Shown in pieces: positions 5,183-60,709 of a DNA stretch of 64,000 bases (the first letter of the stretch is position 1; each line of letters opens with the position of its first letter). Location of the stretch: NCBI GenBank assembly GCA_964621595.1, contig CAZUPO010000001.1:78758-142757 (forward strand), in the 5' to 3' direction. The position numbers were made by a program, and so were the translations under genes. Source of the DNA: an uncultured Candidatus Saccharibacteria bacterium. Lineage in GTDB: Bacteria; Patescibacteriota; Minisyncoccia; Phycocordibacterales; UBA5272. The notes beneath the pieces were generated by a model. The model made no database searches. It was not told the origin of the DNA and was given only the letters and a program-made list of their open reading frames with translations.

Positions 5183-6454
5183 CTAAAATACTGGTTTACC
5201 TATGACCGTCTTTCCACCCATATATGGAACTAACACCTCTGGGACTTTTACAGTACCGTCTGCCTGTTGAAAATTTTCGATGATAGCAGTAAGAAGTCTC
5301 GGCGTTGCTGCTGCGGTGTTATTAAGTGAGTGTGTATAGTGCATCTTTCCATCTTTATCCTTGTAACGAATATTGAGTCGGCGTGTTTGGTAGTCGTGGA
5401 AATAACTCGCGGAATGCGTCTCGCGATATTTTCCTTGGGATGGCATCCATGCTTCGATGTCATACTTCTTTACCTGTCCTTGTCCTAGATCTCCACCACA
5501 GATAAGTAACTTGTGATAGGGTATACCCAGTTCCTCCATCATCTCTTCTGAGTGGCGGGTTATTTCTTCGTGATGCTTCACTGATTCTTCATGAGAAGCA
5601 GCACAAAGTACGACCTGTTCACACTTATAAAATTCATGGACACGGATAAGACCCTTCACATCCTTACCATGACTCCCCGCTTCTTTTCGAAAACATGGAC
5701 TCCATGCGATGATCCTACGTGGAAGATCAGATTCTTGTAATACTTCATCACTGTGATAAAACATCGTAGCAACTTCTCCTGTTCCGGCTAGATAATCATT
5801 ACCATCCTTATACAAATCATCTTCTCCTTGTGGAAGATAGCCAGAACCAAGCAGTGCTTCACGTCGAACAAGTGAGGGTACGAGCATAGGCTCGAATCCT
5901 TTGTCTTGCCAACGCTTCATAACATACTGCCACACAGCTATCTCCAAAAGTGCTGCATCATTTTTAAGGAAGTATCCGCGAAAACCTGCCGTTTTTGTTC
6001 CACGATCAAAGTCAACGAAATTTTGCTTCTCCATGATCTCGATATGATCGCGTGGTGTGAATGAAAATGTTGGTAGTGTTCCCCAGGAAGCAATGTCAAC
6101 ATTTTCACTATCATCTTTTCCCTCTGGAACAGACATATCCGGCACATTTGGTACCGCAAGCATGAGTCGCCTCCATTCCACCATCACTTTTTCGAGTTCA
6201 TCTTCTTGTTTTTTCAGAGAATCTTTAACACCTTTCATCTCCTCGATGAGGGTTTGTCTTTCTGTGGCGTCGACTTTGGTTATCTTTTCACTTGTTGCGT
6301 TTTGTTTTGAACGCAATTCTTCTACAACACGTAGTATTTCTAGACGATCAGTGTCTACCTTTACAAGATCTTCGACCTTAAATGGAATATGCTTTTTTCT
6401 TGCAGCTTCTTTAATAATATCTTGGTTTTCGCGAATAAATTTGATATCTAACAT
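5183..6454 (-). CDS. serS: seryl-tRNA synthetase
   Basis: N-terminal coiled-coil arm, class II aaRS core motifs; start at MLDIKFIRENQ (ATG revcomp at 6452-6454); 424 aa. Confidence 0.85.
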   Translation of the reverse strand: MLDIKFIRENQDIIKEAARKKHIPFKVEDLVKVDTDRLEILRVVEELRSKQNATSEKITKVDATERQTLIEEMKGVKDSLKKQEDELEKVMVEWRRLMLAVPNVPDMSVPEGKDDSENVDIASWGTLPTFSFTPRDHIEIMEKQNFVDFDRGTKTAGFRGYFLKNDAALLEIAVWQYVMKRWQDKGFEPMLVPSLVRREALLGSGYLPQGEDDLYKDGNDYLAGTGEVATMFYHSDEVLQESDLPRRIIAWSPCFRKEAGSHGKDVKGLIRVHEFYKCEQVVLCAASHEESVKHHEEITRHSEEMMEELGIPYHKLLICGGDLGQGQVKKYDIEAWMPSQGKYRETHSASYFHDYQTRRLNIRYKDKDGKMHYTHSLNNTAAATPRLLTAIIENFQQADGTVKVPEVLVPYMGGKTVIGKPVF

Positions 6455-48320: not shown

Positions 48321-49019
48321 TTACGAATTATGAGTTTTTTTTCCTATTGTATTCTCTTTCTTTGCTCTGTATTCATCAATAAGTTTGTGATTCCCAGAGA
48401 GAAGCACTTTTGGTACTCGATATTTTTTACCAGCATATTCGTATACCTCTGGGCGACCATACACTTCGTGACTTGCAACACGTTTATCTTCAAGTGAAAC
48501 TGAGTCATGTAGCACGCCCTCTAGTTGACGAGACATCGCATCAATACAAATCATCGCCGGTAACTCTCCTCCAGTGAGAACATACTCACCGATACTCCAC
48601 TCTTCCCCCTTTAATATTTTCTTAACTCGGGCATCTATCCCCTCGTACCTACCACAAATAAAAATTATGTCGGTGTATTTCCTTACTGATGTTTTTGCCA
48701 GCGTGTTAGTGAACCGCTTTCCTCCTGGGCTAAAAATAACGATCTTCCAAGACAGTTTTTCTCCTTTCTTTTTACTTTTTGTCTCTTGTTTCTTTTTAAT
48801 ATCATCAATCGTGCGGAGAATTGGATCGACCCACATGACCATCCCTGGACCACCACCGTACGGACGACCATCGACACGACGATGTTTATCAGTTGTATAT
48901 TCCCGAAGCGGGTATGTAGTGATCGATAAAATATTGTTTTCTATTGCACGTGCAATAATCGACTCATTAAAGTATGAATCGAGCATATTTGGGAAAATGG
49001 TGACCACGTGGAAACGCAT
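48321..49019 (-). CDS. trmD: tRNA (guanine37-N1)-methyltransferase
   Basis: MRFHVVTIFPNM start, RVDGRPYGGGPGMVM SPOUT-knot motif. Confidence 0.85.
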   Translation of the reverse strand: MRFHVVTIFPNMLDSYFNESIIARAIENNILSITTYPLREYTTDKHRRVDGRPYGGGPGMVMWVDPILRTIDDIKKKQETKSKKKGEKLSWKIVIFSPGGKRFTNTLAKTSVRKYTDIIFICGRYEGIDARVKKILKGEEWSIGEYVLTGGELPAMICIDAMSRQLEGVLHDSVSLEDKRVASHEVYGRPEVYEYAGKKYRVPKVLLSGNHKLIDEYRAKKENTIGKKTHNS

Positions 49020-49150
49020 AGTTTATACGTGAGATACTATCATACTTATGCAGTAATCGTAAGTAGTGAGATGTACATCTTGTAGCAAAACCTCAGTCAC
49101 AAGGACTGAGATTTTGCATTTAAACTAGAGACACATTAAACGTCGACAAA

Positions 49151-49483
49151 CTATATTCCCTTCAAATCATTCATGACGGCATCAACATCAGTCATATCAT
49201 AACGCGGTGGATAGGATTGAGACCCCTCTTCATAGCGACGACCTTCTGGTTCGTTAATCTTCAAATTTACTCGTGCATTATTCTTCATACCAACAACACG
49301 AAGTAGGGTGCGTAACGCCTTGGCAGTAGCACCATCACGACCAATCACTTTACCCATGTCTTCTCCCGCAACGTCCAGTGTAATGAGTACACCCATCTCA
49401 TCGACTCGTCTATCTACTTTTACTCTGTCGGGATTATCTACTAATGCTTTCACTACATACTCTACGAATTCTTGATCTTTCAT
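49151..49483 (-). CDS. KH-domain RNA-binding protein (KhpA-like)
   Basis: VIGRDGATAKALRTLL GxxG KH motif; conserved rpsP-KH-trmD gene order; start MKDQEF at 49483. Confidence 0.6.
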   Translation of the reverse strand: MKDQEFVEYVVKALVDNPDRVKVDRRVDEMGVLITLDVAGEDMGKVIGRDGATAKALRTLLRVVGMKNNARVNLKINEPEGRRYEEGSQSYPPRYDMTDVDAVMNDLKGI

Positions 49484-49596
49484 ATGGATATTCTTTTTGT
49501 ATTTTGTATACAATGCTAAGTGTAGCAATGGAGACACCATGCAAAAGAAAGTTATTCACATATTACGTTAATAACTAGCAGTACGTACGCAACAAA

Positions 49597-49626
49597 AGAA
49601 AAAACGCGTGGTCTCACGCGTTTTTT
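49597..49626 (-). terminator. Rho-independent terminator after rpsP
   Basis: AAAAAACGCGTG-agac-CACGCGTTTTTT. Confidence 0.6.
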
Positions 49627-49654
49627 CTTCTTATCCTTACAAACTACCCAAAAC

Positions 49655-49954
49655 TTATGCCTTCTTCTCTTCTTTCTTTACTGGAGACTTGCGAGGAAGT
49701 ACGTTAACCTTTTTCCCTTCAATAATTCCCTTAGAGATAAGGAGGTTACGTACAGTTGGGGTAACTTGAGCACCAACTCCAATCCAGTGCTTGACGCGAT
49801 CCTTCTTTGCTTCGAAGGTTCCCATCTTCACATTATACGTACCGATGATTTCATTAAAGGAAGTGGTCTTCGGCTTTAAAATACTTTCTGTAACAATAAG
49901 ACGAAAATGTGGGTCATTTTTTCGGCCAATGCGTTGTAATCTGATTTTTAACAT
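49655..49954 (-). CDS. rpsP: 30S ribosomal protein S16 with Lys-rich C-terminal extension
   Basis: MLKIRLQRIGRKNDPHFRLIV; start at 49954. Confidence 0.85.
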   Translation of the reverse strand: MLKIRLQRIGRKNDPHFRLIVTESILKPKTTSFNEIIGTYNVKMGTFEAKKDRVKHWIGVGAQVTPTVRNLLISKGIIEGKKVNVLPRKSPVKKEEKKA

Positions 49955-50021
49955 GGGGTATATTTTACCATAAACCACCAGAAAAGAAAAGCCCCCACCA
50001 GAAACCTTCTTGGGCTTAGTT

Positions 50022-50414
50022 TTATGAAGTAGTTCCTCCAGATTTTTGATGCTCGGCAAGCATATATTCCACTTTGTCTACAAGTTGCTTCCCAGAATAA
50101 TCAACTTTTAAAATAACCCCGAGCGCCCCAGCCTCCAGAACCTTTGCATTTATTTCTGCGTCCGAAATATTCGAGCAAACAATAACTGGTATGGGTAATG
50201 TTGTGGTCTTTTTCATGGTACGCAAAAACTCAAATCCGTCCATTTTCGGCATCATAAGATCAAGCAATATAACATCAGGCATTTTTTCAACAACACTATT
50301 AATACCGTCGAGTCCATTATCTTCCAAAATCACCTCATACCCCGCTTTTTCAAAACTGTGCCGGTAGATTTCCTGAATATCTTTATTATCCTCAACAATC
50401 ATTACTTTTTTCAT
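50022..50414 (-). CDS. receiver-only response regulator (CheY-like), pair 1
   Basis: MKKVMIVEDNKDI...DVILLDLMMPKMDG REC domain, no output domain. Confidence 0.75.
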   Translation of the reverse strand: MKKVMIVEDNKDIQEIYRHSFEKAGYEVILEDNGLDGINSVVEKMPDVILLDLMMPKMDGFEFLRTMKKTTTLPIPVIVCSNISDAEINAKVLEAGALGVILKVDYSGKQLVDKVEYMLAEHQKSGGTTS

Positions 50415-50415
50415 A

Positions 50416-52098
50416 CTATGATACTGTTTCTTTGTCAGATGAGTTGACATCCCCTTCTGCAGCCGATGTCTTAGTTTTTGCGTCAAGAGATGCTTCTTGT
50501 AACTCTACATAAAAACGTGAACCTTTATCCTTACCGTCCGACTCCGCCCATATCTGACCATTGTGGGCACTTATAAATATCTTCGCTAGGTACAAACCAA
50601 GACCTGTCCCAAGAATATTTACCTTCTGCACATCAGCGCGAGAGAACTCCCGGAAGAGAGCAGACATTGTGTCCGGTGTAATTCCCACCCCTGTGTCACT
50701 CACCTTAATAAGTACTCGTCCATTTTCTCGTGTCACCGTGACATCAACGAGTCCTTTCGGGGTGTACTTGATAGAATTGTCGATGAGGTTTGTAATAACT
50801 TCTTTTAACTTCCCTCGATCAGCCATCACAAAACATTTCTCTTCTGTAGCAAGGCGCTTCGTCAATTGTAAATTTTTTTGGTCAGCGTTAACTTGAAATG
50901 TCCCTAGTATTTCATTTACGAGTTCTACAACATCCAATCGTTGAAAAACGTACTGAAGTTGCCCAAGTTCTATTTTTGACTTATTGAGATATTGCGAGAG
51001 GAGTGAGATAACTTCATTACCTGAAATCATGATCTTCTGCAACAAATCCACCACCTGTGGCGGTACGGTCCCCTTGTCCCCTTCAAGTAAAATAGAGGCG
51101 TAACCGCGCATAATAGTGATCGGCGTTCTAATCTCGTGTGTGGCAAATGTCATAAGTTCTGATTTTTGATCATTGGCCAATTCGATTTCAAACGTATTTC
51201 TTACAAGTTGGATACTGAGCGCCAAGGTGAGTACAAACACAAGGATACGTAAAAGGAGTTGTTCTATATTGTCCGCTAAAATAAGTTCTATAAGAGAGAC
51301 AACACAGAGGAAGAATGTGAAGATTCCAGCAAAAATATTTTTGACATGGAACATCTCCACCAAATAAATTGCGTACGCTGTGAACACTATAACTGGGAAA
51401 ATAAAGAGTGCTCCGAACGGAACAAAGTCGAAGTTATGGAAACCAATCGGTAGGATAAAACTAAATAGGAGGAGTAGTCCAGCGGTTAACGACATTCCGG
51501 TGAACATAAGTACATTTTGTCGTCTCTCGTCACCTTTGGTAATGTGTATCTTTCTGAAAAGTGTAGCGAGTCCTGCGGATAGGAAACTAAATGTCACGAT
51601 CCCGGCAAGCATGATGCCGTCGCTCTTCTCTGGGTTAGCAAACTCAGTGATTGAGATTAGATTATTAACCTGTGTAAAGAGAAATGGAACAAGGAGAAGC
51701 GCGGAAGCAAAGAATGCGAGCGGGAGAAGTACATACCTATGCCACAAAGGAAATTCTTTGTGCTCTGAAGGAAAAACAACTGCGAGCTGGTAAAAAGCAT
51801 AGGAGTGCCAAATGGTGAGGAAGATATGAATACGTAACGAGAGTACTGTTAATGACGGGTCTGTAAACTTATACAAGAAATAGTTCGATATTCCCCAAAA
51901 TACTGTAATGATAGAAAAGAAGAAAAATGTTCGACTGGTGATACTGCGTTTGCTTCTGTAAAGAACGATTGCGGCGAGAGACAAAATACCTACAACAGCG
52001 ACACCAACTCCAACTAAATCAAACTGTATACGATCAAAAAAATCCTGGAGTTGCACTACGAAGTCATTCATACTACAAGTAAGTATAACGCACCACAC
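50416..52098 (-). CDS. sensor histidine kinase with N-terminal 7TM domain, pair 1
   Basis: ~7 TM helices, HisKA (FATHEIRTP) and HATPase_c (N, G1, G2 boxes) domains. Confidence 0.75.
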   Translation of the reverse strand: MWCVILTCSMNDFVVQLQDFFDRIQFDLVGVGVAVVGILSLAAIVLYRSKRSITSRTFFFFSIITVFWGISNYFLYKFTDPSLTVLSLRIHIFLTIWHSYAFYQLAVVFPSEHKEFPLWHRYVLLPLAFFASALLLVPFLFTQVNNLISITEFANPEKSDGIMLAGIVTFSFLSAGLATLFRKIHITKGDERRQNVLMFTGMSLTAGLLLLFSFILPIGFHNFDFVPFGALFIFPVIVFTAYAIYLVEMFHVKNIFAGIFTFFLCVVSLIELILADNIEQLLLRILVFVLTLALSIQLVRNTFEIELANDQKSELMTFATHEIRTPITIMRGYASILLEGDKGTVPPQVVDLLQKIMISGNEVISLLSQYLNKSKIELGQLQYVFQRLDVVELVNEILGTFQVNADQKNLQLTKRLATEEKCFVMADRGKLKEVITNLIDNSIKYTPKGLVDVTVTRENGRVLIKVSDTGVGITPDTMSALFREFSRADVQKVNILGTGLGLYLAKIFISAHNGQIWAESDGKDKGSRFYVELQEASLDAKTKTSAAEGDVNSSDKETVS

Positions 52099-52145
52099 CC
52101 CAGAACACCTGTGAGTATCTTAGGCAATACGCCTGTGTAGGCATG

Positions 52146-52517
52146 TTATGCCTCCACGTTCAAAATATGACTGATCTTGTCCACCAATTGCTTACCAGAA
52201 TAATCCACCTTGAGGAGTACTGCATTAGCCCCAGATTCAACAGCCTTTGCGTACGTTTCTTTGTCTGAAAGGTTGGAACATACCACAACAGGGACTTTGA
52301 TGTCAGTGTTTTCCTTGAGTGCTTTTAAAAATGCAAAACCATCCATGTTCGGCATCATCACATCAAGAAGAATAATATCTGGCTGCTTCTCTACTACAGA
52401 TGAAATCCCGTCGAGTCCATCGAATTCTTGGAGTACCTCATATCCGGCACTTTCAAAATTGAGTTTATAAATCTCCTGTAGATTCTTATCATCCTCAATA
52501 ATCATTATCTTTCTCAT
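52146..52517 (-). CDS. receiver-only response regulator, pair 2
   Basis: MRKIMIIEDDKNL...DIILLDVMMPNMDG; paralog of 50022-50414. Confidence 0.75.
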   Translation of the reverse strand: MRKIMIIEDDKNLQEIYKLNFESAGYEVLQEFDGLDGISSVVEKQPDIILLDVMMPNMDGFAFLKALKENTDIKVPVVVCSNLSDKETYAKAVESGANAVLLKVDYSGKQLVDKISHILNVEA

Positions 52518-52536
52518 ACTGTTTTTGTGCCTTTAA

Positions 52537-54159
52537 TTATAGCATCGGGAGAGTGACAGAGAAAGTTGACCCCTTGCCCAGCCCTTCGGAATCTATAAAA
52601 ATATATCCTTTATGCGCTTCAATAATCTCATGTGCAAGGTAAAGCCCAAGTCCAGAGCCACCACCGTTAAGTACTGCCCCCTCTCCACGACCAAACTTGG
52701 TAAAGAGTTTTTCTTTTGTTTCTGGAGAAATACCCACACCAGAATCACTGACAGAAAATATAATTGTTTTATGTTCTTCATCACGGACAAGTTTCACCTT
52801 AACAAAACCTTCTTTTGTGTATTTGATACTATTATCAATGAGATTTAAATAGACTTGCTTTATCTTTGTGCCGTCAGCGCTCGCCATGAATGATTGTGAT
52901 CCATCGATTTCTGAAGTGAATGTAAGGTGTCTGTCTTCGGCGGCAATTTTCATATCTGACACAAGATCCAAGAATGTCGACTTAAGATCAGTCGGCGCAA
53001 ACACATATTTCATACCCCCCTGCTCTATTTTTGTAACATTCAAGAAGTCCTCTACTACACTCGCGAGCCCCTGCGCCGCAGCATAGATATGACGCACAAT
53101 CTCCTTTTGCTTATCAGAGAGCTCGCCAACAATACCATCAGTGAGTGTAGAGGCATATCCCTTGATGACAGTGAGAGGACTACGAAGTTGGTGGGAAGCG
53201 AGTGACACGAACTCCGACTTCAACTTATCAAGCGATTTTAATTTTTCGTTTGCAACAGCAAGGTTTTCAGTTAGATGTTCGAGAATGAAGATATTTTTTA
53301 CAAATTGAATAGAAATCAACAAAACAAACAGAAAAATACCCGAGCGAAGTATAAGTTGTCCCGTATCATCCGCAAAAATAACTTCCAAGAAAGTCACCAC
53401 ACACAATCCAAAAGCCATTAGAGATGAGCCTATGTTCTTAACTTTGAATGCCTTATGTTTGAAAATAGCGTACGTTGTGAAAATCGAGAAGGGAAAAATT
53501 GTCAAAGCACCCAGAGGAATAAATCTTATAATCTCGAAGACCGCGGGAAGGATTAGATTGAAGGTAAATAATAAAATAAAAGTTAATATGGCTCCTACTA
53601 ATATTAAGATAAGCGGACGTCTTTCTATTTTTTTTGCTTTTATTATTTTTTTAATGAGGATTACAAAAGAACTGATCACTAAGATACAGACGGTTAATAA
53701 AAATAATAAGATCCCTTTCTCAACAACTGGCTCTGGTTTATTATCTAGAAAAGTGACGCCTGAAAAAACAAGATTCCCTAAGATTGTCCAAAGTGAGATA
53801 AAAAAGATGTACGGTAGTAAAATATATTTATGCCAAACAGGAAAAATAACTCTCTCCTTGGGAAATACAAAAAGAAAATTAAAGAATGTGTAGGAATGCC
53901 AAAAAGCAAGGAAAATAACGATTTTCCATAAAGAAAGTACTAGGTCGGGATTATTTGTTTGATAACTTACATAATTAAAAAAACTCCACAACATAGTAAC
54001 GACACAAAACAAGAAAAAAGATACGTTGGTATAACTCTTGCTATTACTTGTATAAACAATAAAACCCAATAAAGCAATCGCTGAGATTGTTACCCCGACT
54101 GTTAGTAAGTCAAGATTAAGAAAATTTAAATTTTGAATTAGGAATACTAAATCTTTCAT
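52537..54159 (-). CDS. sensor histidine kinase with N-terminal 7TM domain, pair 2
   Basis: Paralog of 50416-52098 (WHSYTFFNFLFVFPKER vs WHSYAFYQLAVVFPSEH); HisKA SHQLRSPLT. Confidence 0.75.
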   Translation of the reverse strand: MKDLVFLIQNLNFLNLDLLTVGVTISAIALLGFIVYTSNSKSYTNVSFFLFCVVTMLWSFFNYVSYQTNNPDLVLSLWKIVIFLAFWHSYTFFNFLFVFPKERVIFPVWHKYILLPYIFFISLWTILGNLVFSGVTFLDNKPEPVVEKGILLFLLTVCILVISSFVILIKKIIKAKKIERRPLILILVGAILTFILLFTFNLILPAVFEIIRFIPLGALTIFPFSIFTTYAIFKHKAFKVKNIGSSLMAFGLCVVTFLEVIFADDTGQLILRSGIFLFVLLISIQFVKNIFILEHLTENLAVANEKLKSLDKLKSEFVSLASHQLRSPLTVIKGYASTLTDGIVGELSDKQKEIVRHIYAAAQGLASVVEDFLNVTKIEQGGMKYVFAPTDLKSTFLDLVSDMKIAAEDRHLTFTSEIDGSQSFMASADGTKIKQVYLNLIDNSIKYTKEGFVKVKLVRDEEHKTIIFSVSDSGVGISPETKEKLFTKFGRGEGAVLNGGGSGLGLYLAHEIIEAHKGYIFIDSEGLGKGSTFSVTLPML

Positions 54160-54165
54160 AACTTT

Positions 54166-55218
54166 TTAATTTATAAAGACTGGTTCCATTCTTTTAGAAA
54201 CTGCCGTAGGCTTTTCTGCTTTACCAACTCTAAAAATAAAACCAATATGAGCACCATTGGTATTGAAAGAATTTTCAAGTACATGGAATGATTTGTTGAT
54301 AAGATTAAGGTGTTCTGTATTAAAAATTGTATCTCCGCCATTTTTACAAAACTGATGTAAGTAAAGGGTCCCATTACAAGGATGTACTGCTAGACCTAGT
54401 TTGGTTGCCATTAACCAAGATCTTTGCACGGCGCGACCAAGATGTAAAAAATCAACTGCTGAAAAACCCTTCATTGTAAGGGCACAAAAGGCCGCTGAAT
54501 TGGTATATTTTTCACCATTCTCTTTGCTAATCTTATCGGCTATTTTTAAAAAAAAGTTAAAAACCTTTAATATATTCCAGTTTTTGAATAGTTTAACAGC
54601 TCCGAGTTGATGAGGTAAAAATTCAAGAGTATCAATAAAAAAACCACCAGATTTATTTTCGTCTTCTTTTCTCCAAATAATATGTTTGTAAAAAAAATCA
54701 TGCATGGACTTAGTTTCAAATAACACTTTCTCATGCGCGGAAAGAGCATACCCAACATCCTTCATCAAGATTGGATCGTCAACAAAAACAAGAGAACCTT
54801 TTTCATAGGAAGTTACGGAGTTTAAGATATCTATTTTTTCTTTTTCATTTAATTTTTCTTTTTTATAATCTTTTCGATTAGTACATCGTGTTCTTATAAA
54901 ATTATAAAGAGTATCTTTTTGAGAATTTTGTTTTTGAAAAAAAATATCTGCTGTGTGCGAAAGATTGCTATTGTCAGGTAATAATGTAACGACTGGATTA
55001 TATCCACGTTCCAGTGCGCTTAAAAAAATATTTTCTATTAGCGCTCCGTGTGCTATGTAAGAGCCTCTTTGTTTTATGTTATATAAGGATTTATCAGCTT
55101 CTTCAATGTTAAAGATAGACAAAATATTGTTTTTGTAAAGAAATTTCCATGGTTGGCAATTCTCTCCTGATGGAGCACAGACTCCATCCCTTACGATATC
55201 TTTAATCTCTTCTGGCAT
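54166..55218 (-). CDS. two-lobed nitroreductase-fold oxidoreductase (SagB/McbC-like candidate)
   Basis: APSGENCQPWKF FMN-nitroreductase motif near N-terminus; 350 aa (about twice a canonical nitroreductase). Confidence 0.6.
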   Translation of the reverse strand: MPEEIKDIVRDGVCAPSGENCQPWKFLYKNNILSIFNIEEADKSLYNIKQRGSYIAHGALIENIFLSALERGYNPVVTLLPDNSNLSHTADIFFQKQNSQKDTLYNFIRTRCTNRKDYKKEKLNEKEKIDILNSVTSYEKGSLVFVDDPILMKDVGYALSAHEKVLFETKSMHDFFYKHIIWRKEDENKSGGFFIDTLEFLPHQLGAVKLFKNWNILKVFNFFLKIADKISKENGEKYTNSAAFCALTMKGFSAVDFLHLGRAVQRSWLMATKLGLAVHPCNGTLYLHQFCKNGGDTIFNTEHLNLINKSFHVLENSFNTNGAHIGFIFRVGKAEKPTAVSKRMEPVFIN

Positions 55219-55243
55219 ATTTATAGTTTATCATCTAGAAAGA

Positions 55244-56431
55244 CTACAGACCAAACACCTTTCTGAAAGTGTCCGCTGCGTACTTTCTTTTAAGTATTTC
55301 ACCCTCTTCAAGATAGTCGGGTGTGAATTTTTCGTCTATTGAAAGCACAACTCTGTTATCCTCGACAGATTGGTTGTTCAATATTTTTCGAATACAGTAT
55401 GCCACGGCGACACCGTTAACTAGAGCCGCTCCTCCAAGTTGGGGCCAAGAAACAATAGTCTTCCCCATTTCTAAAAGTGATTCCTGCATCCGCACTGTCA
55501 CATTATCAGCGCCAACACATTTTGTTGCCATTTTACCAATTCCGAATTTATCAAGTTTAAGTAGAGAGTCATAAGATAAATCTTCACCGAGACGACCGTG
55601 GAAATATTTTATACTTTCATCTAAATCATATCTTTCGATATCGATTACCGCATTATCTCCATTATCAGTGCCCATTAATACTGGAATTTTATATTCTTTT
55701 GCCTTTTCTCTGATCAAATATTTTACCGCTATATTATCTAATTCATCAACTACAATATCTAATCCTTTAAAAAAAGTGTCGATATTTTCTGGGTGTAACC
55801 CTTCGGGGAAAATTTCGATTTCAGCATACGGATTAATTTCATAGATTCGTCGTGCAACCATTTCCACTTTTAATATACCCAAATTATCAACTCCTATTAG
55901 AATTCTGTTAGTATTAGAAAGGGCCAATCTATCCATATCAGCAAGTTTCAAATGCTTTGGTCCACCTTGTAGAGTTAGTGCAAACGCAACTGACGAACCA
56001 ACACTCAAACCCCCAATACCAACTGTAGCGTTATAAAATTTTTGCTGTTCTTCATGCGAAATTAAATTTTTATTTCTTGCCGTTCGTACTTTTTCGAAAT
56101 CAGGTTCGTTTAAAATATGTACAAGTTTTGATGACCATGGGAAATAGACCCACTTTCCATTTTTATATAAAGGTTTTTCTTTTTTAAGACTTTCATAAAA
56201 ATCTTTAAAGTCATTCTTGTAGTTACTTGTATAGACTTTGGCAGGATTATTAATACCGAAAAGTTCAAGAAGTAGTTCTTCATAATCATCTACTGTATAT
56301 TGGACCCGGCCATCAGCAATCATTGTATTGACAATATCTTCTTCTTTGGGATTTGAAAGATCGAAGAAAATGGGGCGGAAATTTTTATTATCCTGCTTCG
56401 TAATAAGTAAATCTTCGGTATTATAAGACAT
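55244..56431 (-). CDS. ThiF/MoeB/E1-like adenylyltransferase-fold protein with ~130-aa N-terminal extension
   Basis: VGIGGLSVGSSVAFALTLQGG (GxGxxG Rossmann) ... LKLADMDRLALSNTNR typical of E1/ThiF family. Confidence 0.6.
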   Translation of the reverse strand: MSYNTEDLLITKQDNKNFRPIFFDLSNPKEEDIVNTMIADGRVQYTVDDYEELLLELFGINNPAKVYTSNYKNDFKDFYESLKKEKPLYKNGKWVYFPWSSKLVHILNEPDFEKVRTARNKNLISHEEQQKFYNATVGIGGLSVGSSVAFALTLQGGPKHLKLADMDRLALSNTNRILIGVDNLGILKVEMVARRIYEINPYAEIEIFPEGLHPENIDTFFKGLDIVVDELDNIAVKYLIREKAKEYKIPVLMGTDNGDNAVIDIERYDLDESIKYFHGRLGEDLSYDSLLKLDKFGIGKMATKCVGADNVTVRMQESLLEMGKTIVSWPQLGGAALVNGVAVAYCIRKILNNQSVEDNRVVLSIDEKFTPDYLEEGEILKRKYAADTFRKVFGL

Positions 56432-56523
56432 ATCTATTAATTATAAACTAAGCATAACACAAATGAGCTAATAGCAACATGTTACCTAAACAACGAACAA
56501 TTGGAGGTAGATACCGACTGATG

Positions 56524-58050
56524 TTAATGTGAGCCAATCCATTTCTGTTTACCTTTTAAAGAAAAGTGGGTTTCGTCTCCATATTTATAAAAAACTAACT
56601 TTGGATATACACGAGATCCTATTGTCTCATAAAGTTTCTTGTATTCACTACTCTGTTTAAGTAAAGTTGTATGGATATCTTTTAAAACCTGATTTTTGGT
56701 TTTTGAATTCACAGTAACATTCCTCTTTAGTTCCAAGTTGATTTCTAAATATTGATTTTCATTTTTATCATTTTTTGTAAACATAGTAAACTTTCCAGTA
56801 GTAATCTGACTAGAAATCTTTGAAGCAAGGCCTTTTTTTATATACTCCGGGTAAACAAGGGCCCCGTACAAAGTTGTAGAGAAATCTGATCTTTCGTATA
56901 CATACACAAAGGGTAATTCAGTGATGGTATCTTCTAGGCCTGTTTTTTTTATCTCTTCCTTAATATCAACCCCTGCGTTTATACATGCTTTTAGCACATC
57001 ATTAAAAGAAAGTACCCCGCCCTGATCTCCTATGTCGTATCTAACCAACGGAAGAGCATTATCTGCTGTGCATAAAATAACACCCGTAGGCGCTTCGAAA
57101 TTTATAAAGTCTGGAATATACTGAGCAAATGTTGGTAATCTGTTAGCTTGATTAAACAAATTACTATATAATTTTTTATTCTTGACGGCGAGTCGTCTTA
57201 ATAAAATTGTTAGCGGCGTTTCTTGAGCCATACTTCCAAGTTCGGCACTACCATAGATATTCATCATATCTCTGTACATATTTTTGATACCCATTTTTTT
57301 AGTAATATATTCTCGAAAACTCTCAGAAAAAGACTCCGCGGCGAAGATGACTTTAATTGAATATTTTTTCCAAAAAACATTACTGAACTGTGCTTCATCA
57401 GCAAGATCTTTAATAAACGGTGGATAGCCACATATAATAATATGATCAAAAAAACTACCGAGACTTTTGATTGCCTGATAAATTTCTGCCTTGTTGATTC
57501 CTGGGGTAATAATTGTTACGGGGAACCCTCGCTCCCCCATATGTTTGAAGGCTTGATATGTAATCAACCCACCAATCCATACCCCCATACCGAAACAATC
57601 GATAACCAGGGTTGATTCTTTTTTTTTGATTCTAGAAATTTGGAAAAAAAGTTGATGGGAAACAGACGACTGTAAATCAATTTTCTCAACTCTAGGAAAA
57701 TAAAAAGGTGTGCCCGTAGAACCTGATGTTGCTGTTAAGACTAGTGATTTTTTTTGAAAAACTTTTTTTTTGCACAAATCAACCCATTTGTAAAGACGAA
57801 GAAAATTTTTTTTACTAAAGGATGGAGTTTTGTCTATTTTGAGTTTTTTTATATTTACACCCGACTTGATAAGAAAATCTTTATAGACTGGTATATTCTT
57901 CGATGTTTCTTGTAGGATTTTATTGAGTCTTTTACTTTGAATCGCAGACCAACTTTCGCTTTTTAAAATAAAAAGTGAGTTTACATAGTCATTATATATT
58001 CTAGATGACTCTTGTGACGATTGTGTACCAGGTAAAACGGGGGTGGCCAT
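56524..58050 (-). CDS. adenylate-forming enzyme, phenylacetate-CoA ligase (PaaK) / coenzyme F390 synthetase / CapK family
   Basis: TSGSTGTPF P-loop variant characteristic of the PaaK/F390 subgroup of ANL enzymes; 508 aa. Confidence 0.6.
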   Translation of the reverse strand: MATPVLPGTQSSQESSRIYNDYVNSLFILKSESWSAIQSKRLNKILQETSKNIPVYKDFLIKSGVNIKKLKIDKTPSFSKKNFLRLYKWVDLCKKKVFQKKSLVLTATSGSTGTPFYFPRVEKIDLQSSVSHQLFFQISRIKKKESTLVIDCFGMGVWIGGLITYQAFKHMGERGFPVTIITPGINKAEIYQAIKSLGSFFDHIIICGYPPFIKDLADEAQFSNVFWKKYSIKVIFAAESFSESFREYITKKMGIKNMYRDMMNIYGSAELGSMAQETPLTILLRRLAVKNKKLYSNLFNQANRLPTFAQYIPDFINFEAPTGVILCTADNALPLVRYDIGDQGGVLSFNDVLKACINAGVDIKEEIKKTGLEDTITELPFVYVYERSDFSTTLYGALVYPEYIKKGLASKISSQITTGKFTMFTKNDKNENQYLEINLELKRNVTVNSKTKNQVLKDIHTTLLKQSSEYKKLYETIGSRVYPKLVFYKYGDETHFSLKGKQKWIGSH

Positions 58051-58159
58051 ATATTTAAAGTCTTACTATTCTATAACTATTTCTAAGTTTTGTATAGTTA
58101 AATGACTGTTTATTTTTCTAATAGGTCAATCTCTCAGTGAATTAAATTTTATAACACTT

Positions 58160-60106
58160 TTACCCCAATAATGCGTAATCGATGAGGCGTAGTTCGAGGT
58201 TTGCATTTTTTACTTGTATACGGACTGGGGTGCCTATCTTGTACTCAATCCCTGTTCTTTCGCCAAATACTCGTCCCCCTTTTTGATCGTATACATAAAA
58301 ATCATTTCCAAGGTCGCGCAACTTCACCATACCCTCACACTTACTCTTCTTTTCTTCGACATAGATTCCCCACTCGGAAACGCCGGTTACCATTCCTTCG
58401 AACTCTTGCCCTATGCGATACGACATATACTCAACCTGCTTATACTTGATACTTCCACGCTCTGCGTCAGAGGCTTCTTTTTCTCGACGTGATGCTTTGA
58501 CACACAATGATTCATAGAGTCCGCGCTCTTCAACATTTGGATATTTGTCTTCGACTACTTGCATGAGGAGTCGATGAGTAAGGACATCTGGATAGCGACG
58601 AATAGGAGATGTGAAGTGAGAGTAGAAAGAAAATGCAAGGCCATAGTGACCAATGTTTTTTGTGCTATACACCGCCTTTGCCATCGAGCGAGTAATGTGA
58701 ACCTGCAGAAGTGCTTTCTCAGGTCTATCCCCCATCTTCTCAAGAAGCGCATTTAGATCCTGTGATGGTATGAGACCGTCTGTAAAACGCACATGATACC
58801 CAAGACCACGTATGTAGAGATCAAGTTCATGCATACGATCAGGATCTGGCTTGTCGTGAATACGATACACGCACACCGCATTTCCTTCGCCATTCTTTTT
58901 CTCCTGCATTTCTGTAATGTACTTGCTAACATATTTGTTTGCTAAAAGCATGAACTCCTCGACAAGTTTGTGTGTGTCCCCTCGCTCTTTTGTATAGACA
59001 TCTACCGGCACACCCTTCTCGTCTAACTTAAATTTAACTTCTTGCGTTTCGAGTTGAAGTGCGCCATGTGCAAAACGCTCTTTCGTAAGATTCTTCGCAA
59101 TCTTGTTCAAGATGTTTAACTCTTCGTAGAAGTCACCGTTGTGGGTGTCTAGGGTTGTTTGCGCATCCTCGTAGGTGTATCGACGATGTGAGTTAATAAG
59201 TGAACGCCCGTACCACTCATTGTACACTTTACCCGCATCATCGATCTCAAGTACACATGACATAACAAGTCGATCTTCCCCTTGCACCAAAGAACATAAA
59301 TCATTTGAGAGAACTTCTGGAAGCATAGGAATGCAGCGATCAACGAGATACACACTTGTCTCGCGTGCTATGGCTTCTTCATCAAGAGCAGTACCTGGGC
59401 GAACATAGTAAGAAACATCTGCGATATGAATACCAACTTCGTAATGACCATTATCTAGCTTTTTGAACGATAGGGCATCATCAAAATCCTTCGCATCAAG
59501 CGGATCAATGGTAAATGTTGGTATAGAGCGAAAATCACGACGACCTTGTTTGTCTTCCTCGGTAATACCACGCTTTTTTATAGTTTCAGCCTCTTCATTG
59601 ACTTGCTTGCCATGTTCATCACTGAAGCCACGCTCAAGGGCGTACGCAAGCATTTCTGCATCATTCTCTCCGGGGTGCCCGAGGACGAACGCAACTTCCC
59701 CGATTGGAGACTTCTTTGCATCTTTCCAGTCAGTGATACGTGCCACAATCTTCATCCCCGGTGCAGCGTCGTGAAGAGCATCATGTGGAATGAGTATATC
59801 TGTATACATGCGTTTGTCATCGGGAACGAGGAAATACATCCCGTTATCTGCTTCGAGAATACCGGCGTATCCATGCTTGTTACGCTCAACGATACTTGTG
59901 ACAGTTCCGTAAAGTTCATCTTCGCCGCGGAGATTTTTCTTCTTACCAAATATTTCAACTTCAACAATGTCGTGATGTAATGCAGTATGCAAGTGACTGT
60001 GGTCAATGAAAATAGCACCCTCACCATTTTCCATGAGGTCGGCTACTCGCACGTAACCATCTTTTTTTGATGTAATACTTATTTGCCCTGTATGACGGTG
60101 ATCCAT
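58160..60106 (-). CDS. rnr: ribonuclease R (RNB family 3'-5' exoribonuclease) with C-terminal S1 domain
   Basis: 648 aa; N-terminal cold-shock-like region, central RNB domain, C-terminal S1-like beta-barrel (GMVTGVSEWGIYVEE...). Confidence 0.8.
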   Translation of the reverse strand: MDHRHTGQISITSKKDGYVRVADLMENGEGAIFIDHSHLHTALHHDIVEVEIFGKKKNLRGEDELYGTVTSIVERNKHGYAGILEADNGMYFLVPDDKRMYTDILIPHDALHDAAPGMKIVARITDWKDAKKSPIGEVAFVLGHPGENDAEMLAYALERGFSDEHGKQVNEEAETIKKRGITEEDKQGRRDFRSIPTFTIDPLDAKDFDDALSFKKLDNGHYEVGIHIADVSYYVRPGTALDEEAIARETSVYLVDRCIPMLPEVLSNDLCSLVQGEDRLVMSCVLEIDDAGKVYNEWYGRSLINSHRRYTYEDAQTTLDTHNGDFYEELNILNKIAKNLTKERFAHGALQLETQEVKFKLDEKGVPVDVYTKERGDTHKLVEEFMLLANKYVSKYITEMQEKKNGEGNAVCVYRIHDKPDPDRMHELDLYIRGLGYHVRFTDGLIPSQDLNALLEKMGDRPEKALLQVHITRSMAKAVYSTKNIGHYGLAFSFYSHFTSPIRRYPDVLTHRLLMQVVEDKYPNVEERGLYESLCVKASRREKEASDAERGSIKYKQVEYMSYRIGQEFEGMVTGVSEWGIYVEEKKSKCEGMVKLRDLGNDFYVYDQKGGRVFGERTGIEYKIGTPVRIQVKNANLELRLIDYALLG

Positions 60107-60163
60107 ATGTTACCTAAAGTAACTCATAGTGTAGCACATGTATTGTAATAAATTGACATGTTG

Positions 60164-60192
60164 ATGTATTTATTATAGTGTTTTCATAACCA
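60164..60192 (+). promoter_or_regulatory. sigma70-like promoter for high-GC gene 60210-60644
   Basis: TTGACA -35, TATAGT -10 candidate 15-16 nt downstream; GGAGG Shine-Dalgarno 7 nt before ATG. Confidence 0.35.
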
Positions 60193-60209
60193 ACATTCTG
60201 GAGGCCTCC

Positions 60210-60644
60210 ATGGCCACATTGTACCTGTTTCAAAATCTCATGCGGCATAAAGAAGCCCTCATGCACGTGAGAATGTTTGACCCGGGCGTTCTCTGGAGCG
60301 GGATGATGGAGCGCATCGGGGCGGATCCGTCCGACCTATCGCCGGCACTCATCGTTGGAGATACCGACGACGATGCACATCGCACCGTGCAGAACAATGG
60401 CGGGAAGACGGTCGAGACGAAAGAACCTATCAAGTTCTTCCGCTTCGATACCATGGCACTGCGCGACGAGGTGCGTGAGCGGATCACGAAACTTCGTCCG
60501 CCTGTGCTCTGGAGCGGAATGATGGAACCGGCGCAAGTCGATGGCGATCCAGACCATTCCCCGGTCCTCCTCGTTAGCGATTCGGTGACCGCCTTCATGT
60601 GCGCAAACGGTGGCGGCACCGAAATCAGGGACGCAGAGATCTGA
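60210..60644 (+). CDS. high-GC small protein with internal VLWSGMME repeat (unknown function)
   Basis: 144 aa ORF in ~60% GC DNA with own promoter-like, SD and strong terminator; duplicated motif (P)VLWSGMME(R/P). Confidence 0.5.
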   Translation: MATLYLFQNLMRHKEALMHVRMFDPGVLWSGMMERIGADPSDLSPALIVGDTDDDAHRTVQNNGGKTVETKEPIKFFRFDTMALRDEVRERITKLRPPVLWSGMMEPAQVDGDPDHSPVLLVSDSVTAFMCANGGGTEIRDAEI

Positions 60645-60657
60645 CGGCACCCCTCCT

Positions 60658-60693
60658 CCCGCTTGAGAAGCCCGGCTTCTTGAGCGGGTTTTT
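60658..60693 (+). terminator. Rho-independent terminator
   Basis: CCCGCTTGAGAAG-cccgg-CTTCTTGAGCGGG + TTTTT. Confidence 0.65.
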
Positions 60694-60709
60694 CATTTCT
60701 CTTCAATCT

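Follow-up and report, generated by a model that had tools for sequence, protein, structure and literature searches.

Which pathway would join a ThiF-like protein, a flavin-dependent oxidase (FDO) and a PaaK-like adenylating enzyme to two pairs of membrane sensor kinases and response regulators? The question is raised by a block of seven open reading frames (ORFs) that runs from position 58050 down to 50022 on the minus strand, with zero strand switches, in a 64-kb window (the whole stretch of 64,000 nucleotides that was analyzed, taken from contig CAZUPO010000001.1 of an uncultured Candidatus Saccharibacteria bacterium). A first-pass annotation made from the letters alone had listed the seven genes on one strand. 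The ORFs, together with Pfam and NCBIfam profile scans of the ten proteins at 49151-60106, bore out both this list and its domain calls. On the evidence given below, we see an even chance that the block encodes a form of the oxazolone (azlactone) pathway specific to Patescibacteria, coupled physically to its own membrane sensor kinases.

Two enzymes matching the halves of the Rv1355c family

The ThiF-like gene (55244-56431, minus strand) encodes a predicted E1-like adenylating cyclase of 395 aa (Pfam ThiF, 1.4e-25). After a spacer of 25 nt it is followed by the gene for the FDO (54166-55218, minus strand), a 350-aa member of the nitroreductase superfamily. Residues 12-370 of the ThiF-like protein aligned to positions 5-340 of NF005901, the model of the 'Rv1355c family' (8.2e-94, 315 bits), and the FDO aligned to positions 376-712 of the same model (9e-48, 163 bits). 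None of the classical ThiF, MoeB or E1 families scored above 76 bits against the ThiF-like protein. The FDO also matched PRK14851 (3.6e-49, 167 bits) and, more weakly, the Acg/Rv3131 family (8e-31, 108 bits).

Rv1355c is the enzyme TrzS, a fusion of a ThiF cyclase and an FDO that converts N-acyl-tryptophan into N-acyl tryptazolone. Its cyclization, which depends on ATP, and its desaturation, which depends on O2, were reported in 2025, and mutation of Asp217, which is conserved in the ThiF adenylation motif, abolishes the cyclization (PMC12856293). The same chemistry is carried out by the split pair TyzB/TyzC (PMC10404671), and the first enzyme shown to perform it was OxzB, a fusion protein from Pseudoalteromonas rubra (bioRxiv 10.1101/2020.06.11.147165); in all three cases the substrates are aromatic amino acids carrying an N-acyl group.

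Structural comparison pointed in the same direction. By sequence, the solved structure nearest to the ThiF-like protein is that of TcdA, a tRNA t6A cyclodehydratase (1.4e-14); in this alignment the glycine-rich GIGGLSVGS corresponds to GIGG--VGS of TcdA, and the Asp-containing VVDELDN to VIDAIDS. The AlphaFold 2 (AF2) model of the FDO (predicted local distance difference test, pLDDT, of 90) is a monomeric tandem nitroreductase fold, which agrees with the 'double-size nitroreductase' of the first-pass annotation. Its best match in the PDB is the Acg homolog 2YMV (E 3.4e-13, template-modeling (TM) scores 0.71/0.75), the structure also named as closest to the FDO domain of TrzS by the authors who described that enzyme (PMC12856293).

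Judged by these sequence matches, the two proteins form a predicted split member of the oxazolone-synthetase type, which would act on a small molecule. The first-pass annotation had seen in them the partner set of SagC/SagB-type pathways for ribosomally synthesized and post-translationally modified peptides (RiPPs). That is not the best assignment, because the pair corresponds to the N- and C-terminal halves of a single Rv1355c family model. The two enzymes probably work as a cyclase and a desaturase on an acylated amino acid.

A role in cofactor sulfur transfer, as known for MoeB and ThiF, was considered separately and rejected: MoeB, ThiF and MoeZ reached at most 76 bits against 315 for the Rv1355c family, and no ThiS/MoaD-like gene was seen in the profile scan of the block.

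The third enzyme

The profile searches placed the ThiF-like protein and the FDO in a characterized pathway type; they did not do so for the third enzyme, the PaaK-like protein (PaaKl; 56524-58050, minus strand, 508 aa), predicted to be an adenylate-forming enzyme with a PaaK fold. PaaKl had no match to any Pfam family even at E ≤ 1, AMP-binding included. Its only NCBIfam match was the PaaK equivalog TIGR02155, at 1.2e-10 and 40.6 bits against a cutoff of 646.3, over model positions 6-295 of 422.

The sequence elements expected of an ANL enzyme, namely the P-loop TSGSTGxPFYFPR, YGSAE/D, Y.IGD and the C-terminal K501/K503, are invariant across 25 PaaKl homologs. When the AF2 model (pLDDT 85) was compared with known structures by Foldseek, the best matches were PaaK1 (2Y27; E 2.8e-22, TM scores 0.63/0.74) and BT_0428, followed by the amide ligase ClxA (3e-15), a 2-hydroxyisobutyryl-CoA ligase and the amide-bond synthetase McbA (~1e-10). 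Identity to the PaaK structures is 16%. The earlier label 'PaaK-type' is thus right at the level of the fold, for a protein far below the PaaK equivalog cutoff, and motifs and model together indicate an intact ANL-type adenylating enzyme with a PaaK-like two-domain fold.

The PaaKl family is sizeable: when 1.84 billion cluster representatives were searched with a profile, 681 clusters (50% identity) were returned at E ≤ 1e-30, and relaxing the threshold to 1e-10 raised this to 1417. The relatives that carry names come from metagenome-assembled genomes (MAGs) of Parcubacteria, Paceibacteria or Patescibacteria, that is, the candidate phyla radiation (CPR), with the sole exception of one MAG labeled Gammaproteobacteria. 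Contigs that encode an identical ligase likewise stem from metagenomes, and the names of the relatives mark the window as part of a CPR genome of the Parcubacteria type. Whether PaaKl makes the N-acyl amino-acid substrate of the other two enzymes, by direct amide ligation, is a matter on which we find the arguments evenly weighted.

Conservation of the cassette among Patescibacteria

A scan of species-representative genomes yielded 290 relatives of the ligase, and the best 80 loci of these 290 were compared by tblastn, ORF clustering and a neighborhood map. Nearly all of the 80 are labeled Patescibacteria (Kaiser-, Taylor-, Nomura-, Azam-, Uhr-, Magasanik-, Harrison-, Lipton-, Wildermuth- and Adlerbacteria, among others). 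By tblastn, a ThiF homolog was present in 78 of the 80 loci, in most of them immediately 3′ of the PaaKl gene. Where the contig is long enough, the usual order on one strand is PaaKl, ThiF and FDO, and then a seven-transmembrane (7TM) histidine kinase. The conserved co-occurrence that the first-pass annotation had proposed to look for was therefore there to be found: the same arrangement recurs in 80 other species-level genomes, which is far beyond chance.

The surroundings of the cassette vary by lineage, with rnr and rpsP in the window and dnaK-dnaJ or trpS-aspS in others. As it stays together in such different chromosomal contexts, the cassette acts as one unit.

In 37 of 72 loci the gene just upstream of the ligase encodes an enzyme that interconverts amino acids and 2-oxo acids. 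Three types were seen: a dehydrogenase of the Glu/Leu/Phe/Val family (aaDH), matched best in NCBIfam by the tryptophan dehydrogenase ScyB (280 bits); an aminotransferase of class I/II that resembles HisC; and a bona fide IlvE (362 bits against a cutoff of 279). When the window was searched for the partners found in relatives (the dehydrogenase, the aminotransferase, IlvE, a 305-aa protein described below, and M19, NUDIX, ApbE and TrmB-like proteins), none was found. Neither the ten scanned proteins nor the annotated conserved neighbor families of the 80 loci, in which several smaller clusters were left unannotated, included a GNAT/FeeM-like acyltransferase.

Fusions were predicted among the cluster representatives: PaaKl-ThiF (863 aa), ThiF-PaaKl (880 aa), aaDH-PaaKl (847 aa) and aaDH-PaaKl-ThiF (1242 aa). 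These metagenome proteins (P0264, P0274, P0355 and P0364) are collinear with the proteins of the window or with the dehydrogenase of its relatives. As PaaKl and ThiF occur in two opposite domain orders, it is hard to invoke a lost stop codon alone.

Several further genes accompany the cassette in some relatives. In ~11 relatives (for example, at 5363-6286 in locus L011 and at 13753-14670 in L020) the FDO and the kinase are separated by a conserved protein of ~305 aa (c17), which has no Pfam or NCBIfam match, is absent from the window and may be an extra tailoring step. In three relatives an M19 'membrane dipeptidase' gene (c51, Pfam 9.5e-27) is found inside the cassette, between PaaKl and ThiF on the opposite strand in L013 and L018, and past ThiF in L066. 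We take M19 to be a dehydropeptidase family; if so, it might be relevant to a dehydro-amino-acid product. Small polytopic membrane proteins of ~160 aa without a family match occur in ~8 relatives, encoded immediately upstream of the gene for the aminotransferase, the dehydrogenase or the ligase (c39 in L019, L023, L024 and L070; c35 in L011, L052, L075 and L084) and could be transport components. A gene of the ApbE family of flavin transferases (c41) lies within a few kb of the cassette in L035, L028, L029 and L049, which could be relevant for flavinylation or a coincidence. Finally, crude gene calls contain unusually long ORFs, with a PaaKl of 742 aa in L029 (10001-11515 region) and, in L064, L065 and L085, kinases that reach 714-754 aa, which hint at further domain accretions.

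Kinases and response regulators

The first kinase gene, HK1 (52537-54159, minus strand, 540 aa; HisKA_7TM 1.5e-7, HisKA 2e-15, HATPase_c 1e-24), begins 6 nt past the FDO gene. It is followed by the response regulator gene RR1 (52146-52517, minus strand, 123 aa; Response_reg 1.1e-21), by a second kinase gene, HK2 (50416-52098, minus strand, 560 aa as called; HisKA_7TM, HisKA and HATPase_c), and by RR2 (50022-50486, minus strand, 154 aa as called; Response_reg 4e-23). The two pairs are indeed paralogous, as the first-pass annotation had held. HK1 shares 37% identity with HK2 from end to end, the transmembrane region included, and RR1 shares 63% with RR2. Both kinases have the N-terminal 7TM domain ascribed to them earlier, and both regulators are stand-alone receivers: they carry the acidic pocket (EDD), the Asp in LLDVMMP and the conserved Ser and Lys, and have no output domain.

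The same annotation had taken the tandem duplication of the sensor pair as a hint that the product, or its synthesis, is tied to signaling, and the comparison of loci speaks for a meaningful link. HK1 orthologs lie on the same strand, usually right after the FDO gene, in 54 of 81 loci. Where at least 5.5 kb of downstream sequence is available, a 7TM kinase was found at most 9 kb from the ligase gene in 46 of 51 loci. Response regulators stand before or after the cassette in 22 loci. In L041, L053, L055, L066 and L069, two to three tandem receiver-only regulator genes are located upstream of PaaKl rather than past the kinase.

We aligned 56 cassette-linked kinases and found that the mean frequency of the top residue is 0.505 in the 7TM sensor against 0.502 in the catalytic core. 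Shared motifs of the sensor are NLDLLSVG, KSITNR, NY..YQ, LTPLVF, FNFILP and FIPLGALFIFPF..FT.YAI..H. Sensor domains do not usually equal the core in conservation, which suggests that these kinases share a class of ligand. That the kinase senses a metabolite of the pathway is a possibility we regard as somewhat doubtful. A search with the 7TM domain of HK1 returned 15 mostly fragmentary proteins, the word index used being weak on transmembrane sequence.

Proposed pathway

From what was observed, namely gene content, homology to a characterized family, synteny and domain fusions, we infer a chemistry, the kind of acid and amino acid it would use, its independence from CoA, and a sensing step. 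PaaKl would adenylate a carboxylic acid and transfer the acyl group straight to a hydrophobic or aromatic amino acid, at the alpha-amino group, with no acyl-CoA involved, and so would stand in for the GNAT-like OxzA, TyzA or TrzA. In many relatives the adjacent or fused Leu/Phe/Trp-type dehydrogenase, the HisC-like aminotransferase or IlvE would supply the amino acid or its 2-oxo-acid/acid partner. The ThiF-like protein would then adenylate and cyclize the N-acyl amino acid, and the FDO, dependent on flavin mononucleotide, would desaturate the C-alpha/C-beta bond to give a conjugated oxazolone. One or both 7TM kinases may sense this product, its precursor or a neighbor's version of the product. 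They would phosphorylate the receiver-only regulators, whose output would be through protein-protein contacts and not through transcription.

Several points weigh against this pathway. The fusions rest on metagenome gene calls, so they may be frameshift or assembly artifacts. The curated cutoff of NF005901 is 476 bits and was set for the fused protein; the ThiF-like protein and the FDO each fall below it, and their sum of 478 bits reaches it. Because the window holds no dehydrogenase or aminotransferase partner, these enzymes must be dispensable or encoded elsewhere. The nearest characterized relatives of PaaKl are CoA ligases, so that it might just make acyl-CoA. The known FDOs of the oxazolone pathway use O2, and anoxic habitats are home to many Parcubacteria. 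Lastly, the signal of the kinase could be an unrelated one, with co-transfer reflecting shared regulation only.

A bolder proposal goes further, for Patescibacteria of the Parcubacteria type, whose biosynthetic capacity is close to nil: an aaDH or transaminase, a PaaK-like amide ligase, a ThiF cyclase and an FDO would form a CoA-independent route to an autoinducer, which would be an oxazolone-type or related dehydro-amino-acid heterocycle detected by the cognate 7TM kinase of the same cassette. We consider it unlikely in this full form.

Alternative explanations

The product of PaaKl could be an acyl- or aryl-CoA, passed to an N-acyltransferase that is encoded elsewhere or derived from a host, in an otherwise standard oxazolone pathway. 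The phenylacetate-CoA ligases and BT_0428 are, after all, its best sequence and structure matches. Against such a plain CoA ligase stand its 40 bits with a PaaK cutoff of 646 and its low identity to PaaK structures (16%). Furthermore, the annotated conserved neighbor families of the 80 loci contain no acyltransferase, and the fusions of PaaKl with ThiF and with the dehydrogenase argue that its product goes directly to ThiF. CPR genomes also generally lack a fatty-acid or CoA-centered metabolism. We therefore think it improbable that PaaKl is a plain CoA ligase.

The same enzyme logic could lead to a dehydro-diketopiperazine or dehydrodipeptide. PaaKl would join an amino acid either to a second one or to a 2-oxo acid, the ThiF-like protein would activate the C-terminal carboxylate, the free N-terminal amine, in place of the amide oxygen, would attack it to give a cyclic dipeptide, and the FDO would introduce an alpha,beta double bond in the manner of AlbA, a cyclic-dipeptide oxidase with a nitroreductase fold. 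To our knowledge, characterized PaaK-family enzymes activate aryl or alkyl carboxylic acids and not alpha-amino acids, and the characterized direct homologs of the ThiF-FDO pair all make oxazolones. It would fit a dipeptide that the commonest extra partners interconvert amino acids and 2-oxo acids and that an M19 dipeptidase gene lies within the cassette in three loci, although this gene is rare and on the opposite strand. AlbA itself was cited by De Rond et al. as a nitroreductase-family precedent for the oxidation of amino-acid-derived substrates (bioRxiv 10.1101/2020.06.11.147165). Overall, a cyclic dipeptide appears to us a poor prospect.

Next comes RiPP-like chemistry or protein tagging, in which the E1-like protein would adenylate the C-terminus of a peptide or protein, the nitroreductase-fold enzyme would oxidize a heterocycle or a residue, and PaaKl would add an acyl cap. 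Dehydrogenases of the SagB type do have the nitroreductase fold. Before OxzB, moreover, all substrates of characterized ThiF-family enzymes were polypeptides or tRNA (bioRxiv 10.1101/2020.06.11.147165). The absence of a YcaO and of a precursor-like ORF, both remarked on in the first-pass annotation, held up under searching. There was no match to the YcaO family among the ten scanned proteins. ORFs of 12-80 aa lying outside genes at 49000-60700 gave nothing significant in tblastn searches against the 80 loci (best E 0.02), and clustering of ORFs of at least 45 aa from these loci revealed no conserved small protein beside the cassette. Without a conserved small ORF, the data are consistent with a small-molecule substrate. 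The Rv1355c family also scored four times the bits of any protein-activating E1 family. A peptide or protein as substrate is thus very unlikely.

A stress or redox module would give the FDO the leading part. It would be an Acg-like flavoprotein for adaptation to hypoxia or oxidative stress, governed by a two-component system like the DosR regulon of Mycobacterium tuberculosis, with the other two enzymes as accessories. The match to Acg/Rv3131, the Acg homolog as best solved structure and the kinase gene adjoining that of the FDO are all compatible with this, and the tyz locus of M. tuberculosis has been linked to oxidative-stress resistance (PMC10404671). Nonetheless, the FDO scored higher against the ThiF-fused FDO families (167 and 163 bits) than against Acg (108 bits), the regulators have no DNA-binding output domain, and the near-obligate ThiF and PaaKl partners and their fusions are left unexplained. 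We give such a module very little credence.

Anti-phage defense with a Cap2-like E1, of the CBASS (cyclic oligonucleotide-based antiphage signaling system) or 6A-MBL type, was rejected as practically negligible: the PADLOC matches to E1-E2 (Cap2), at most 33 bits, and to the 6A-MBL cap2_3 (E 3.5e-4) all fall on the generic nucleotide-binding Rossmann core of the ThiF-like protein, which matched the Rv1355c family far more strongly, PaaKl and the FDO have no PADLOC match, no cyclase, effector or E2/JAB partner is present, and the cassette sits between housekeeping genes and is conserved across the whole class.

Gene starts and genomic surroundings

The spacers between consecutive genes of the block are 92, 25, 6, 19, 47-74 and ~1 nt, the last two becoming ~74 and ~1 nt with corrected starts. 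The short gaps reported in the first-pass annotation are thus real, with probable shifts in the starts of HK2 and RR2. Start-codon context and the gene calls on contigs that encode an identical ligase make the ATG at 52071 the more likely start of HK2, and the ATG at 50414 that of RR2. The latter would give a protein of 130 aa; RR2 has this length in the gene calls of one identical contig and 126 aa on another. With the start at 50414, the apparent overlap of 71 nt with HK2 disappears. The same kinds of evidence suggest that rpsP starts at 49954.

The block is flanked by housekeeping genes, RNase R upstream and rpsP, a KH-domain protein gene and trmD downstream. The GC content of third codon positions (GC3) is 0.24 in the FDO, 0.28 in the ThiF-like and 0.29 in the PaaKl gene, against 0.35-0.42 in the neighbors; HK1 has 0.35. 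The low GC3 of the three enzyme genes (54166-58050) therefore suggests lateral acquisition, with a relative of lower GC content as the donor.

Just past rpsP, at 49596-49629, we noted a hairpin of 15 bp without mismatch, which contains GC pairs, is accompanied by T-runs on each strand and resembles a bidirectional terminator. It is the only strong terminator-like site, and nothing of the kind stands between RNase R, the cassette and rpsP. Because the sole such hairpin lies after rpsP, its position suggests that read-through from the cassette into rpsP is possible. A promoter scan gave 29 matches against 27 expected from shuffled sequence. Between RNase R and an SMC/AAA-like gene there is a 144-aa ORF on the plus strand (60210-60644) with no recorded Pfam match; the contigs with an identical ligase have it among their gene calls.

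Implications

The physiological role of bacterial oxazolones has been called 'a major unresolved question', and signaling has been speculated on (PMC12856293). An enzyme pair of the oxazolone type, tied across many species to a kinase with a conserved sensor, offers a concrete candidate for an oxazolone receptor. The genomes of Patescibacteria are minimal, and a dependence on hosts is assumed for these bacteria, so it would be unusual for them to keep a small-molecule pathway and a sensor for it so widely, and the pathway could matter for locating hosts or communicating with them. If the autoinducer proposal is true, this would be the first small-molecule system of cell-cell or symbiont-host signaling in the CPR, and the first physiological role and receptor to be assigned to natural oxazolones. 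If, on the other hand, the chemistry is standard and the kinase unrelated, the cassette is merely a new taxonomic and architectural version of a known pathway. PaaKl, as a PaaK-fold family without a Pfam or NCBIfam model, is a candidate for a new class of ATP-dependent N-acyl-amino-acid (amide) synthetases, with a possible use in biocatalysis.

Comparison with known systems

In all characterized oxazolone pathways the partner of the cyclase and oxidase is a GNAT/FeeM-like N-acyltransferase (OxzA, TyzA or TrzA) that forms the N-acyl amino acid from acyl-CoA (PMC12856293, PMC10404671, bioRxiv 10.1101/2020.06.11.147165). No such acyltransferase adjoins the cassette at 49151-60106 or is found among the annotated neighbors.

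TrzA/TrzS (Rv1356c/Rv1355c), described in M. tuberculosis, M. smegmatis and Rhodococcus, likewise combines a ThiF-like cyclase with an Acg-like FDO (PMC12856293). The pair in the window covers both halves of the Rv1355c model end to end, including the N-terminal extension of ThiF. An Asp occurs in the ATP-binding motif of the ThiF family in both systems, VVDELDN of the window being placed through TcdA and not by direct alignment with TrzS, and 2YMV is the closest solved structure for both FDOs. There are clear differences too. TrzS is one fused protein, whereas the window has two separate genes. TrzA is an N-acyltransferase dependent on acyl-CoA, and its place in the window is taken by an adenylating enzyme with a PaaK fold. 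TrzA/TrzS belongs to mycolic-acid Actinomycetota and the cassette to Patescibacteria. The Trz locus of M. tuberculosis adjoins genes for cyclic di-GMP turnover (PMC12856293), and the cassette adjoins a 7TM histidine kinase.

The split architecture has its counterpart in the tyrazolone pathway TyzA/TyzB/TyzC of M. tuberculosis, where a stand-alone TyzB lies beside the single-chain FDO TyzC of ~340-370 aa (PMC10404671). By NCBIfam scores, the window proteins are closer to the Rv1355c model. TyzA is an acyltransferase similar to FeeM and acyl-homoserine lactone synthases and uses lauroyl-CoA (PMC10404671), and no such protein was found in the window or among the annotated conserved neighbors. OxzA/OxzB provided the first characterized ThiF-nitroreductase enzyme, with an N-acyl amino acid as substrate, ATP dependence and an oxazolone as product (bioRxiv 10.1101/2020.06.11.147165). 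Unlike the window pair, OxzB is a proteobacterial fusion of two domains; its partner is the N-acyltransferase OxzA, and no neighboring kinase has been reported for it.

For the third enzyme, ligases of the ClxA/NatL2 type and McbA share the PaaK/ANL fold with PaaKl at an identity of only ~15%, and PaaKl is ~80 aa longer than PaaK. The partner of the ClxA/NatL2-type ligases is an amidohydrolase and not a ThiF-FDO pair. Their substrate, 3-amino-4-hydroxybenzoate, is unlike that proposed for PaaKl. ClxA, a PaaK-like, ATP-dependent ligase that works without CoA, is reported to form amide or ester bonds in benzoxazole biosynthesis (PMC9400959, PMC12519233), and in this it sets a precedent for the role proposed here.

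The layout as a whole is reminiscent of quorum-sensing loci. In CqsA/CqsS, LuxM/LuxN and AgrBD/AgrC, the synthesis genes lie beside that of a polytopic-membrane histidine kinase and are conserved with it as a unit. The conserved linkage of enzymes and kinase that marks such synthase-receptor pairs was found in our loci as well. The likeness is one of gene layout: there is no sequence relationship, and the regulators of the window are receiver-only.

Our literature search found no paper that joins Patescibacteria with a ThiF and a nitroreductase, and the top-ranked matches for oxazolone with Patescibacteria, CPR or Parcubacteria did not mention oxazolone. Neither a ligase partner nor CPR taxa are mentioned in the OxzB, TyzB/TyzC and TrzS papers. 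The first-pass view that the three enzymes together form no described pathway is thus upheld. The type of pathway built on a ThiF and an FDO is already known; what is new is the PaaK-like ligase as its partner, the coupling to a dehydrogenase or transaminase, and the conserved linkage to a sensor kinase.

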